From a virus (Duplodnaviria; Heunggongvirae; Uroviricota; Caudoviricetes): DNA of 5,124 nucleotides. The DNA is taken from the IMG/VR virus record IMGVR_UViG_2585427739_000007, one strand, 5' to 3'. Positions 487 through 5,124 of the stretch are shown in pieces. The notes beneath the pieces were generated by a model that made no database searches, was not told the origin of the DNA, and saw only the letters and a program-made list of their open reading frames with translations. Each line of letters opens with the position of its first letter. Position 1 is the stretch's first letter. The position numbers were made by a program, and so were the translations under genes.

Positions 487-1514
<1,028 letters not shown>

Positions 1515-1627
1515 GGATATTTATCAGGATTTATCGGCTTCAAATCCCCGGATATGTTAAATCTTACCTCACCAGTGATGGGCACTGGCGGGAGGAGGAT
1601 GTCAATCTGATAAACACAGAGGCGACT

Positions 1628-1888
1628 ATGGATTACACAAATCTACCTAAACAAACTTTTGCTGATTTAATCGCACTCAGGCAAGCAGTCGTAGCTCTAA
1701 TCAACTTGTTGCCGGAGAAGGAAAAGGAATTAGTTAAAGTGCTTCTTAACAGAACTGCCGCCGATTTTTCATCATATCCACTGACAGATGACCTTGCGGA
1801 CCTTCCTGAATTAATTGCAGCGTCCGCCAATAAGCTTACTGAAGAGATTTACCCTCCTCAAAAATCTTCACAAAATTCCTGCGAGTAA
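1628..1888 (+). CDS. Hypothetical small acidic protein, 86 aa, convergent with the lysis genes
   Basis: ATG at 1628 is preceded by AGAGG (1618-1622) at 5-nt spacing. A strong intrinsic terminator lies 22 nt past the stop. The translation is protein-like (helical N-terminus, acidic C-terminus), whereas the overlapping minus-strand ORF 1633..1830 is Ser/Ala/Arg-rich as expected of an antisense frame. It fills an otherwise unexplained ~320-bp gap between two minus-strand genes. No homolog recognised. Confidence 0.4.
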   Translation: MDYTNLPKQTFADLIALRQAVVALINLLPEKEKELVKVLLNRTAADFSSYPLTDDLADLPELIAASANKLTEEIYPPQKSSQNSCE

Positions 1889-2387
1889 CTTCAATGCAAT
1901 AATCGTAAAACGCCGCAAACTGCTCATCGCGGCGTTTTTTTTCATCTTCAGAAGGAATCAGCACCGACAATTTTTTATTCAGATCAGCGACGCTGCCCTC
2001 CAGTTTTTCAATGGGCGATTCAATATCATCTTTTTCTGACCGCAATGCCGTCGGTGGCGTCTTCAGAGAACCAGTAATTCTTCCCGGTAGCTTTCCTTTG
2101 TAGGTTATCCACACATTCTGCGCCTCTAAAATTATGGGGCGCTTTTCCGGCGACTGCTCATCCCCTTCACATAACCCGGCAGCAACATCCAGGAAGACCT
2201 GTCTGATGCTCCTTCTGGCTGCTGCCTCATAAAACTCCAGCGCGGCACCTTCAACACGGTCCAGCGAGATGTCCAGGTCAAAAATTTCACCGTCAAAGTG
2301 TTTTTTGTCCCGTAAGGCTACAGTTACCGCCACTTTATTCTCAAAATTGCGAACTCCTTTCACAACCAGTTCATAGTCTTGAGTCAT
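1836..2387 (-). CDS. Hypothetical protein, 183 aa, between pinholin and endolysin (same position as ydfR/DUF1327 in Qin-type prophages; family not verified)
   Basis: ATG at 2387 lies 4 nt after the holin TAA stop, with a purine-rich GAGAAGAGAG stretch upstream. The ORF track shows a TTG-initiated extension to 2408, but the ATG is the more plausible start. Soluble, acidic, protein-like translation; no transmembrane segment. Function not recognisable by eye. Confidence 0.6.
   Translation of the reverse strand: MTQDYELVVKGVRNFENKVAVTVALRDKKHFDGEIFDLDISLDRVEGAALEFYEAAARRSIRQVFLDVAAGLCEGDEQSPEKRPIILEAQNVWITYKGKLPGRITGSLKTPPTALRSEKDDIESPIEKLEGSVADLNKKLSVLIPSEDEKKRRDEQFAAFYDYCIEVTRRNFVKIFEEGKSLQ
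1910..1942 (+). terminator. Rho-independent terminator for plus-strand transcription
   Basis: Stem ACGCCGC (1910-1916) pairs with GCGGCGT (1929-1935) around a 12-nt loop, followed by T8 (1935-1942). On the minus strand the same hairpin is followed by only TTTT, so it is a weaker terminator in that direction. It lies inside the 3' coding region of the 183-aa minus-strand gene. Confidence 0.55.
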
Positions 2388-2391
2388 TGGA

Positions 2392-2607
2392 TTACTCTCT
2401 TCTCGCAACCTTACGCCTGTCTTCTTTAATCTTGAAATAAAGGTTTGTCAGATACGTCAGCATGCCAAATACCAGACTACCCAATACACCTATTGCCGCC
2501 CACTGTGAGGGCGTGACTTTATCGAGCAACTGTAAAAACCAGTAGCCAGCACTGCCTGCAGAGGTGCTGTAGGCGATGCCCGTTGTTAACTTATCCATGG
2601 ATTTCAT
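2392..2607 (-). CDS. Class II pinholin of the phage 21 S21 type, 71 aa, with dual-start motif
   Basis: Translation [71 protein letters not shown] closely resembles phage 21 S21 and E. coli EssD/EssQ as I recall them. Two hydrophobic segments are present. Dual starts (ATG at 2607 and 2598, giving MKS-MDK) are typical of antiholin/holin pairs. A strong GGAGGTGAGG Shine-Dalgarno lies just upstream. The ORF-track extension to 2691 is not supported. Confidence 0.85.
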
Positions 2608-2797: not shown

Positions 2798-3511
2798 CTA
2801 AGAAAATCTTGATAAATATTGGTGCGGAGGCACACCAAAATATCCTCTAAAAACACTTACAAAATATGATGCATTGTCATACCCGCATATTCCCGCCACC
2901 TTGCCGACAGTATGGTTACTGTAGATCAATAATCTTTGCGCCATCATCATTCGTTCTTCAAGAATTAATTTACTAAACGATAATCCTTCGTCTTTTAATT
3001 TTCTTTTTAACAAACTCTCGCTCATATATAATCTTGAAGATATATCACAAAGTCTCCATGACGCTGAGATATCCGAGTGAATAATAGCCTTAACTTTACA
3101 ACCTAAGCTATTAAGACTTCCGAACAAAAAACTTTGCACTATTTTCTCTGAAGATAAGACAGCAAGACATGCAAGTGATATTTGATTTCTAACTACATCC
3201 ACGGTTTTGCTATCACAATTCAAGCATGCAACCAAGTTCCTTAACAATGAAAAATCTTCACATTCTACTATCAAGTATGACGGATAAAACCTTCTTACAG
3301 AAAAAGGTGAGAGTGTGTAGTTTTTAAAGAAATCATTAACTGTTTTCTCCTCAATATCTACGATCATTAGATGATCTGTATTTGACGAAAAAAGATCTTT
3401 TAAATTGTATTCAATGAGGACAGCATTTCCTTTTTTAAACAAAATATCTTCTTTACCAATTCGGACACCAAACGAGTTCAACACCAAAATGATAGAACAT
3501 ATGTATGGCAT
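2798..3511 (-). CDS. AraC/XylS-family transcriptional regulator of the AppY/YdeO-like subfamily, 237 aa, in an AT-rich island
   Basis: C-terminal double helix-turn-helix signature (WRLCDISSRLYMSESLLKRKLKDEGLSFSKLI...GKVAGICGYDNASYFVSVFRGYFGVPPHQY). The N-terminal half resembles my recollection of DLP12 AppY (e.g. ILFKKGNAVLI and LMIVDIEEKTVNDFF segments). ATG at 3511 has an AGGTGG Shine-Dalgarno 5 nt upstream; the GTG at 3520 used by the ORF track is less likely. Base composition is strongly AT-rich relative to the flanks. Confidence 0.8.
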   Translation of the reverse strand: MPYICSIILVLNSFGVRIGKEDILFKKGNAVLIEYNLKDLFSSNTDHLMIVDIEEKTVNDFFKNYTLSPFSVRRFYPSYLIVECEDFSLLRNLVACLNCDSKTVDVVRNQISLACLAVLSSEKIVQSFLFGSLNSLGCKVKAIIHSDISASWRLCDISSRLYMSESLLKRKLKDEGLSFSKLILEERMMMAQRLLIYSNHTVGKVAGICGYDNASYFVSVFRGYFGVPPHQYLSRFS

Positions 3512-3926
3512 ATTATCCACCTGATATCATTGGGGTTACACCAGGTAAGTATAGGTGGAAAATCAATATTCGCCAGTTCAACAATAAGGAAAATCTCATT
3601 GCATCACAACTATAAAACCATGTGTTTAACTCACAAAAAACAAATCATTAAACTAATCTGTTATATTATAATAGCTGCGTGCAATAATAATATTATATGC
3701 TCTTTATATTCACTTGAAATATCTTCATATAAAACAGATTGAATAAAATCTTTTGGGGCTGGTATGTTTACCAACATTAAATTGCATCTCAATGTTTTCT
3801 TTAGCGTGAACAGGATTTTTATAAAAACTGACACTATGAGCATCATAGCGTAGTTTTTACGATTGTAAATATCCTGCATACAGGAACTCATCACTTTCAG
3901 ATGATATCGCATACAGTTAATTCACC
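3512..3926. other. AT-rich non-coding leader upstream of the AraC-like gene, abutting the IS3 insertion point
   Basis: Very AT-rich with many TATAAT-like hexamers on both strands and no convincing ORF. It probably holds the regulator's promoter and is a plausible nucleoid-protein (H-NS-type) binding region. Its right edge is the IS3 junction. Confidence 0.4.
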
Positions 3927-3991
3927 TGATCTTACCCAGCAATAGTGGACACGCGGCTAAGTGAGTAAACTCTCAGTCAGAGGTGACTCAC

Positions 3992-4291
3992 ATGACAAAA
4001 ACAGTATCAACCAGTAAAAAACCCCGTAAACAGCATTCGCCTGAATTTCGCAGTGAAGCCCTGAAGCTTGCTGAACGCATCGGTGTTACTGCCGCAGCCC
4101 GTGAACTCAGCCTGTATGAATCACAACTCTACAACTGGCGCAGTAAACAGCAAAATCAGCAGACGTCTTCTGAACGTGAACTGGAGATGTCTACCGAGAT
4201 TGCACGTCTCAAACGCCAGCTGGCAGAACGGGATGAAGAGCTGGCTATCCTCCAAAAGGCCGCGACATACTTCGCGAAGCGCCTGAAATGA
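3992..4291 (+). CDS. insE: IS3 transposase OrfA (InsE), 99 aa
   Basis: Translation [99 protein letters not shown] matches IS3 InsE; helix-turn-helix plus leucine-zipper-like region. GAGGTG Shine-Dalgarno upstream of the ATG at 3992; the GTG at 3983 in the ORF track is probably not used. Confidence 0.85.
4254..4258 (+). other. Candidate programmed -1 ribosomal frameshift motif (AAAAG) for the IS3 OrfAB fusion
   Basis: AAAAG lies near the 3' end of insE, with insF in the -1 frame. IS3-family transposases are produced by -1 frameshifting and the IS3 site has been reported as an A-AAG-type motif (from memory). No downstream structure was verified. Confidence 0.4.
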
Positions 4292-5124
4292 AGTATGTCT
4301 TTATTGAAAAACATCAGGCTGAGTTCAGCATCAAAGCAATGTGCCGCGTGCTCCGGGTGGCCCGCAGCGGCTGGTATACGTGGTGTCAGCGGCGGACAAG
4401 GATAAGCACGCGTCAGCAGTTCCGCCAACACTGCGACAGCGTTGTCCTCGCGGCTTTTACCCGGTCAAAACAGCGTTACGGTGCCCCACGCCTGACGGAT
4501 GAATTGCGTGCTCAGGGTTACCCCTTTAACGTAAAAACCGTGGCGGCAAGCCTGCGCCGTCAGGGACTGAGGGCAAAGGCCTCCCGGAAGTTCAGCCCGG
4601 TCAGCTACCGCGCACACGGCCTGCCTGTGTCAGAAAATCTGTTGGAGCAGGATTTTTACGCCAGTGGCCCGAACCAGAAGTGGGCAGGAGACATCACGTA
4701 CTTACGTACAGATGAAGGCTGGCTGTATCTGGCAGTGGTCATTGACCTGTGGTCACGTGCCGTTATTGGCTGGTCAATGTCGCCACGCATGACGGCGCAA
4801 CTGGCCTGCGATGCCCTGCAGATGGCGCTGTGGCGGCGTAAGAGGCCCCGGAACGTTATCGTTCACACGGACCGTGGAGGCCAGTACTGTTCAGCAGATT
4901 ATCAGGCGCAACTGAAGCGGCATAATCTGCGTGGAAGTATGAGCGCAAAAGGTTGCTGCTACGATAATGCCTGCGTGGAAAGCTTCTTTCATTCGCTGAA
5001 AGTGGAATGTATCCATGGAGAACACTTTATCAGCCGGGAAATAATGCGGGCAACGGTGTTTAATTATATCGAATGTGATTACAATCGGTGGCGGCGGCAC
5101 AGTTGGTGTGGCGGCCTCAGTCCG
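4288..5124 (+). CDS. insF: IS3 transposase OrfB (InsF, DDE integrase domain), truncated by the window end
   Basis: Translation begins [36 protein letters not shown]... and matches IS3 InsF. The ATG overlaps the insE stop (ATGA) in the -1 frame. It is absent from the ORF track because no stop codon occurs before 5124. Confidence 0.85.

Follow-up and report, generated by a model that had tools for sequence, protein, structure and literature searches.

What is an 86-codon reading frame doing inside a phage lysis operon, on the strand opposite to the lysis genes? The question is raised by a stretch of 5,124 nucleotides (nt), here called the window, from a virus of the Caudoviricetes (IMG/VR record IMGVR_UViG_2585427739_000007), which is 100 % identical to a Qin-like cryptic prophage region of Escherichia coli NT1F25. 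Between the lysozyme start and the stop of a holin-adjacent gene of 183 amino acids (aa) there are 321 nt (1515-1835), compared with only 63 nt in a relative (L003) that carries no gene at this place, so that the unusually wide gap of about 320 bp reported in an earlier note on this sequence is real. From this gap a plus-strand open reading frame (ORF), which we call ORF86, runs towards the 183-aa gene. ORF86 is a real, conserved small phage gene which is already present in databases as a hypothetical protein. Judged from comparative sequence data, it is on balance probably a protein-coding accessory gene of the moron type, occupying a conserved convergent slot that Qin/phage-21-like lambdoid prophages have within their late (lysis) operon. 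The observation made in the earlier note is therefore confirmed and its interpretation partly supported. The features on which the argument depends are these:

1513-1537, plus strand: conserved block ATGGATATTTATCAGGATTTATCGG, the left edge of the module, which abuts the lysozyme start codon and includes a -35-like hexamer
1530-1558, plus strand: candidate sigma-70-type promoter, with -35 TTTATC (1530-1535), a 17-nt spacer and -10 TATGTT (1553-1558)
1618-1622, plus strand: Shine-Dalgarno (SD) sequence AGAGG, 5 nt before the ATG, read from the sequence
1628-1888, plus strand: ORF86, 86 aa, acidic (isoelectric point 4.6), PHROG 2572, RefSeq WP_072008041.1, "hypothetical protein"
1907-1942, plus strand: hairpin followed by eight T residues (T8), a likely terminator or 3'-end structure, inside minus-strand coding sequence
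1836-2387, minus strand: convergent late gene of the DUF1327/YdfR type, 183 aa, PHROG 2091
1515-2051: mosaic module made up of leader, ORF86, hairpin and the coiled-coil tail of the late gene, present or absent in otherwise homologous cassettes

ORF86 and its relatives

The well-spaced AGAGG reported in the earlier note was found again in front of ORF86, and an SD sequence (AGAGG or TAAGGA) occupies the equivalent position in all ORF86 subfamilies. The overlap with the 3' coding region of the 183-aa gene was also verified: the last 18 codons of ORF86 share 53 nt (1836-1888) with the late gene, within which the hairpin lies too. ORF86 matches the profile of PHROG 2572 from end to end (residues 1-86 against profile positions 1-86 of 86, E 2.2e-52), a family without assigned function or literature. 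The Prokaryotic Genome Annotation Pipeline (PGAP) calls it a hypothetical protein in NT1F25, CFT073 and other genomes, and RefSeq holds WP_072008041.1, WP_001306174.1 (CFT073) and WP_071528021.1 as hypothetical proteins of the same family. It was also found in the sequenced phages 2H10, PhiR63_1, PhiR12_x and PhiR5_1. The PhiR phages are ECOR-derived and the same ORF is annotated in their records; 2H10 is a viable phage in which Rapid Annotation using Subsystem Technology (RAST) left ORF86 uncalled. The GenBank label "DUF1823 containing protein" of the PhiR records was rejected, as the window protein reaches 12.2 bits (E 0.22) against a Pfam gathering threshold of 25 bits; across the family the matches range from E 0.02 to 0.2, the best member having E 0.024. 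Searches of Pfam and NCBIfam assigned ORF86 to no family, DUF1823 and GCIP_C both being sub-threshold.

Sequence comparison indicates that ORF86 is under constraint at the protein level, and the decisive evidence comes from its distant relatives. These were obtained by a profile search of 1.8 billion representative proteins and a second profile search, and five of them (P0020, P0021, P0025, P0027 and P0028), which originate from Salmonella prophages and gut metagenomes, have 89-93 aa and 38-57 % identity to ORF86. P0020 and P0025 also match PHROG 2572. The distant relatives have the start codon at the same place as ORF86, with TAAGGA as the SD sequence. Over 53 gap-free codons the plus frame shows the highest identity of the frames (0.43-0.62) and its mismatches are conservative on average, with a mean BLOSUM62 score of about 0 to +0.35. 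The shadow frame on the minus strand scores -0.4 to -1.4, is interrupted by an internal stop in locus L102, and has neither a conserved start nor a family match; the remaining frames are full of stops.

This minus-strand ORF (1633-1830) had been named in the earlier note as possibly the conserved one. It is open in the E. coli haplotypes too, and its third codon positions are shared with ORF86. Because these positions coincide, the ratio of nonsynonymous to synonymous substitution rates (dN/dS) and codon-position counts are uninformative about which of the two frames is the gene, and they were replaced by the test based on BLOSUM scores and stop codons, in which the plus frame alone evolves like a protein. 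The minus ORF was also considered as a remnant of a long C-terminal domain and no similarity was found. Moreover, the reading frame of ORF86, the conservation of which had been proposed as a check, is intact in 77 of the 89 related loci, and the divergent homologues keep it.

The AlphaFold2 model of the protein has three helices (8-26, 30-48 and 59-74) and a disordered tail, with a mean predicted local distance difference test (pLDDT) score of 74.7. No signal peptide or lipobox was found in ORF86. As a possible lysis protein it showed no clear membrane segment and no Pfam holin match; its most hydrophobic 19-residue stretch, residues 10-28, is borderline (Kyte-Doolittle 1.62) and includes D13, R18 and Q19. 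ORF86 is thus predicted to be a small, acidic, soluble three-helix protein, which most likely acts by binding another protein.

The convergent slot and its candidate signals

The late gene faced by ORF86 starts with the ATG at 2387, its stop ending at 1836, and would encode 190 aa if started at the TTG at 2408. Its product combines two parts, a DUF1327/YdfR domain (2052-2387) and, joined to it, a coiled-coil-like extension of 70 aa (1836-2051). Over its whole length the 183-aa protein agrees with the profile of PHROG 2091, and it is found repeatedly in viable phages. In the PGAP annotation the gene is reduced to 2052-2387 and labelled a pseudogene ("YdfR family protein, incomplete"), which is probably an artefact of the comparison with the short YdfR model. 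No relevant literature was found on ydfR/DUF1327 or on genes between holin and endolysin.

Of 5426 complete E. coli genomes, 294 carry 80 % or more of the module (1515-2051) and 1632 carry some part of it, most of the partial matches corresponding to the segment 1896-2047; a scan of genome contigs yielded only 7 loci. The cassettes without cargo (L003, the L139 type and the K-12 type) have at most 63 nt between the ydfR-type gene and the lysozyme gene. The GC content of ORF86 is 41.0 % (35.6 % at third codon positions, GC3) against 51.9 % for the lysozyme gene (GC3 52.2 %) and 49.1 % for the DUF1327 part. ORF86 thus presents two marks of a moron: it is absent from some otherwise homologous phages at the same position and its base composition deviates. 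The comparative data fit the earlier suggestion of an independently expressed moron.

In all recovered contexts the relative of ORF86 converges on a late-strand gene, with a 3' overlap of 53 nt in the E. coli type and of 59 nt in the others. The partner genes encode DUF1327 fusions of 169, 183, 211 and 243 aa as well as forms of 116 and 144 aa, and in Salmonella the partner is a free-standing 73-aa gene translationally coupled to an Rz-like gene; the homology common to all of them is limited to the last ~37 residues. Since the neighbouring genes differ among the three subfamilies, the minimal shared unit is the leader block, the ORF and the hairpin. In Salmonella prophages the endolysin and Rz-like genes come first, then the module, and then the DUF1441/terminase genes. 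What is conserved is therefore not the position relative to the endolysin, only the convergence with late transcription, and the proposal that the element is a brake on endolysin/spanin expression is unsupported as a conserved role, cassettes without cargo being moreover common.

The block at the left edge of the module, with the consensus ATG(G/T)ATATTTATCAGGnTTTATC(G/T)G, hardly varies among the three ORF86 subfamilies, even at Salmonella and metagenome loci that have no lysozyme gene next to it, and is more conserved than ORF86 itself. No conserved RNA fold was detected in the leader (RNAalifold -2.2 kcal/mol, single-sequence z-scores about -0.8). The hexamers TTTATC and TATGTT and their 17-nt spacing are kept and the sequence of the spacer is variable; the exact motif TTTATC-N17-TATGTT is expected by chance 0.03 times per window. 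From this weak candidate promoter transcription would start near 1565. A mini-ORF of 15 codons (1513-1560, plus strand), which lacks an SD sequence, spans the block and the -10-like hexamer, and the Salmonella-type module L018 has a mini-ORF of equal length, MYIYQALSALKLWLL, whose stop falls in the same column of the alignment. As no synonymous variation occurs in the block, a role at the DNA level is more likely than a peptide.

The slot was surveyed in 83 classified loci bearing a DUF1327 gene, to which an O157:H7 prophage locus (L004), standing outside these 83, can be added. The same motif and an AGAGG SD sequence precede four plus-strand cargo ORFs, namely ORF86, a 90-aa ORF (PHROG 2411), a 104/106-aa ORF (PHROG 1853-like) and the 233-aa ORF of L004. 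The three ORFs other than ORF86 do not match PHROG 2572. BLASTP found no homology between the cargo ORFs, and for the two families that were profiled against ORF86 and each other the hhalign similarities were not significant (E 0.07-0.65). Cassettes without cargo account for 34 of the 83 loci, and in every cargo-less type examined the -35 block is absent or GGACAGGTT replaces GGATATGTT. In one of them, the 297-aa cassette L005, the left-edge block is absent and the lysozyme gene is still present.

Two further observations concern this slot. In L005 (1540-1600) the loss of the -35 block resembles a deletion between two GGATAT repeats, which the window has on either side of the block (1515-1520 and 1550-1555). 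In L004 the 233-aa ORF (1209-1910, plus strand) stands behind the same motif and ahead of the same hairpin, in a slot where about 1 kb was left unannotated by PGAP; it has no match in Pfam, PHROG or PADLOC.

The hairpin begins 22 nt past the stop codon of ORF86. Its stem has a GC core (1911-1916/1929-1934) with an A-U extension to 1907-1916/1929-1938, which makes 10 bp with six G-C pairs and a 12-nt loop, and the T8 run is located at 1935-1942. It folds at -14.6 kcal/mol (z = -3.4), a value equalled by none of 200 shuffles, and is stable on both strands. A consensus terminator scan, which admits loops of up to 8 nt, missed it for this reason. The hairpin is conserved in all ORF86 subfamilies, 20-25 nt after the stop codon. 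On the other strand it encodes EKKRRDEQFAAFY of the late protein, and the residues encoded there vary between late genes (RRDEQFAA, RRDENEAA, RHHENGVA) with the arms kept. Covariation amounts to one compensatory change from G-C to A-U and one G-U variant.

O157:H7 prophages without ORF86 also carry the hairpin segment, the matching stretch reaching as many as 11 copies in one genome, and in genomes without ORF86 the hairpin-bearing coiled-coil segment is joined to other C-terminal domains. The hairpin is absent from the long cargo-less 297-aa form of the late gene. As it belongs to a conserved coding segment of the late gene and is found without ORF86, it is not private to this ORF; of the terminator of its own that had been attributed to ORF86, the hairpin and the T8 run stand and the exclusive ownership does not. 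A second plus-strand hairpin, GCGCCTC...GGGGCGC followed by TTTT, is present in the DUF1327 coding sequence at 2120-2146 (-14.5 kcal/mol, z = -1.5). In L169-type prophages it lies about 45 nt past the stop of the 90-aa cargo, for which it may be the terminator, as a counterpart of 1907-1942 for ORF86.

Proposed expression in the lysogen and competing explanations

If ORF86 is a moron-type gene, its expression could be as follows. The weak sigma-70-type candidate promoter at 1530-1558, beside the endolysin start codon, would fire away from the endolysin and against late transcription. A leader of about 60 nt with the AGAGG ribosome-binding site, both visible in the sequence, precedes the 86-aa frame, and the plus transcript would extend from about 1565 to about 1942, ending at the hairpin and T8. 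Since the hairpin forms part of the late gene's reading frame, the last ~107 nt of such a transcript would be antisense to that gene. ORF86 would be expressed in the lysogen, with the late operon silent. In lambdoid phages generally, late transcription is antiterminated by Q. After induction, this transcription would read through the hairpin from the opposite side and might shut ORF86 off by promoter occlusion and antisense pairing. The unusual trait of the locus is its packing, as the gene is located between the holin-adjacent gene and the endolysin and has its putative terminator and last 18 codons in a convergent frame.

Several points weigh against this explanation. Within E. coli the dN/dS of 0.32-0.67 corresponds to weak constraint, and 12 of the 89 copies are disrupted (seven by ATG to ACG, one by a premature stop and four by loss of the stop codon). 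The candidate promoter has 7 of 12 consensus matches and was not called by a stricter consensus scan. The correlation between cargo and motif is suggestive and not statistical, because the ~4 cargo types and 4-5 cargo-less types are not independent. A loop of 12 nt is longer than is typical of intrinsic terminators, the T8 run is confined to the E. coli subfamily, the other two having the poorer runs TTTCTGTTCTG or TTGTCGCTCATTT, shuffle controls of the single covariation event in the hairpin were not significant, and the protein sequence of the late gene could account for the conservation of the hairpin.

A bolder version can also be proposed, tentatively and as a rather unlikely one. The motif and the hairpins embedded in late genes would form a dedicated reverse expression slot of Qin/21-like and Salmonella prophages, with swappable cargo expressed only in lysogeny and turned off by late read-through; ORF86 itself would then bind a target so as to counter defence or modulate the host, or would antagonise the overlapping late protein.

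The same signals can be read at the RNA level: convergent transcription would work as a brake, through antisense pairing or collision, on leakage of the late operon in the lysogen, so that genes beyond the collision point stay silent, and the protein would be secondary. The convergent geometry, the 3' overlap of 53-59 nt and the embedded hairpin, conserved in all subfamilies, agree with such a brake. Moreover, the promoter-like motif is kept across cargo of undetectable relationship, as expected if transcription itself matters, and in the window it is the endolysin gene, of the signal-arrest-release (SAR) type, that lies downstream of this point. However, a role limited to RNA does not require a protein conserved at 38-57 % with conservative replacements, nor its SD sequence and start codon. 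The Salmonella module comes after the lysis genes, so that no particular lysis gene is a conserved target, and the frequency of cargo-less cassettes (34/83) means that the brake would be dispensable. In addition, polymerase modified by Q is expected from established lambda biology to resist interference from convergent transcription. We regard this explanation as improbable.

It is also doubtful, to a similar degree, that ORF86 and the coiled-coil tail of the late gene are a co-evolving two-gene unit, in which ORF86 would bind the late protein or control it by antisense, for instance in the timing of lysis or in some other late function. Each relative of ORF86 does overlap a late gene with homologous last ~37 residues, whatever the domain upstream, and the antisense frame is open with a positionally conserved stop. 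However, the physical overlap explains the co-inheritance more simply, the tail being the antisense of the 3' end of the ORF and of the terminator, and the hairpin-bearing coiled-coil segment is far more common without ORF86 (1632 against 294 genomes), being joined there to different C-terminal domains.

Kinship with AcrIIC4, which would make ORF86 a distant relative of this three-helix anti-CRISPR and an anti-defence protein, is very improbable. When the family profile was compared with the PDB, AcrIIC4 (88 aa) was the best match of nearly full length (residues 25-86 against 20-83, E 0.13). It forms a three-helix bundle and is encoded by prophages; ORF86 is acidic, and three helices are predicted for it. 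The resemblance is neither significant nor reciprocal (hhalign probability 7.9 % over 25 residues), fold searches did not retrieve AcrIIC4, and it is kept only as a lead. A search of PADLOC-DB 2.0 with ORF86, its relatives and the partner genes had no match at E <= 1, which leaves the anti-defence role put forward in the earlier note with this single lead. Finally, the idea that ORF86 is no gene, either an ORF arisen by chance where mosaic segments join or a mere shadow of the minus ORF 1633-1830, can appeal to the open minus frame of the E. coli haplotypes with its shared third codon positions, to the high dN/dS and to the missing RAST call in 2H10, but is already largely refuted by the divergent homologues, in which the plus frame alone stays open with its SD sequence and start, by the internal stop, non-conservative replacements and lack of a conserved start or family of the minus frame, and by the plausible three-helix fold predicted for the plus-frame protein.

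Taking ORF86 as a moron-type gene, the part worth an experiment is the slot with its swapped cargo and embedded putative terminator. An active slot would mean that lysogens with ORF86, which is carried there by about 5 % of sequenced E. coli (CFT073 included) and by phages such as 2H10, make a small uncharacterised protein out of a lysis operon presumed to be silent; the 537-nt module is found at least in part, mostly as its hairpin segment, in about 30 % of E. coli genomes. The locus would then be a compact natural case of a terminator within a convergent reading frame and of a promoter reused for swapped cargo. If it is inactive, the locus is one more hypothetical phage ORF. The comparison can also be useful for prophage annotation, given the 183-aa gene treated as a pseudogene by PGAP and ORF86 missed by RAST, and for the study of accessory genes expressed in lysogeny in enterohaemorrhagic (EHEC) and uropathogenic (UPEC) E. 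coli.

Surroundings of the module and known systems

The rest of the window is a lysis cassette flanked by insertion sequences (IS):

1-~300: end of an IS2 transposase gene, left flank of the cassette
487-984, minus strand: DUF2514 Rz-like gene
981-1514, minus strand: SAR-type phage lysozyme (rrrQ), PF00959, start at 1514
1836-2387, minus strand: the DUF1327/YdfR-type late gene described above
2392-2607, minus strand: phage-21-type class II holin (essQ), PF04971, with dual start MKSM (2607 and 2598)
2798-3520, minus strand: AraC/YdeO-like regulator
3983-5124: IS3 (orfA 3983-4291, then orfB), right flank of the cassette

In the source genome IS3 is placed between the gene of the Q antiterminator and the lysis cassette, and for this reason the lysis operon is here probably cut off from its own late promoter. 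An Rz1-like lipoprotein frame with the lipobox LTSC (537-833, minus strand) is nested within the Rz-like gene, so that the spanin pair appears complete. The AraC-family regulator (240 aa, 33.5 % GC) is inserted directly upstream of the holin; it is closest to YdeO, GadX and HilD, with scores under the equivalog cut-offs, and looks like a separate moron of the type known from EHEC prophages. Between this gene and the holin, on the minus strand at 2788-2816, the sequence TTTATC-N17-TATGAT differs from the slot motif by one mismatch and could be a lysis-gene promoter or a product of chance. An Rfam covariance-model scan of the whole window had no match at E <= 1. The known prophage small RNAs AsxR/AgvB and Pas were considered for the slot and rejected, as they are positioned between moron or esterase genes and the holin, outside it.

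Three known systems can be compared with the locus. AcrIIC4 is a prophage-encoded anti-CRISPR protein folded as a three-helix bundle (PMC10516666). ORF86 resembles it in size (86 against 88 aa), in prophage origin, in its three predicted helices and in the local motif LP..(K/R)E.(V/I)K.L...A..FSS; it differs in that the similarity is non-significant and non-reciprocal and is not accompanied by a structural match.

The second comparison is with convergent RNAs. The OOP RNA of lambda and cII have 3'-overlapping convergent RNAs, as do txpA and RatA of Bacillus subtilis, which are a type I toxin-antitoxin pair. As in these systems, the transcripts of the ORF86 locus would converge with 3' ends overlapping by tens of nucleotides, and from this overlap an RNA duplex with the late mRNA is predicted. 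Unlike in these systems, the antisense partner is a conserved protein-coding mRNA and there is no small hydrophobic toxin.

The third comparison is with morons. In phage lambda, bor adjoins Rz on the opposite strand, and lom is another example. Unlike Bor and Lom, the product of ORF86 has no signal peptide. The general features of the morons of lambdoid phages are taken here from Juhala et al. (2000) and Hendrix et al. (2000), in part in the form in which PMC4104026 quotes them. Like such morons, ORF86 is extra DNA in some otherwise homologous phages, lies within the late operon and is lower in GC than its neighbours. Its sequence moreover suggests a promoter of its own, a hairpin with a T-run, and an orientation that would allow expression while the late genes are silent. 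It departs from them in being located between the holin-adjacent gene and the endolysin and not after the cassette, in having its terminator-like hairpin and last 18 codons embedded in a convergent late gene, and in sharing its candidate promoter element with several interchangeable cargo genes.

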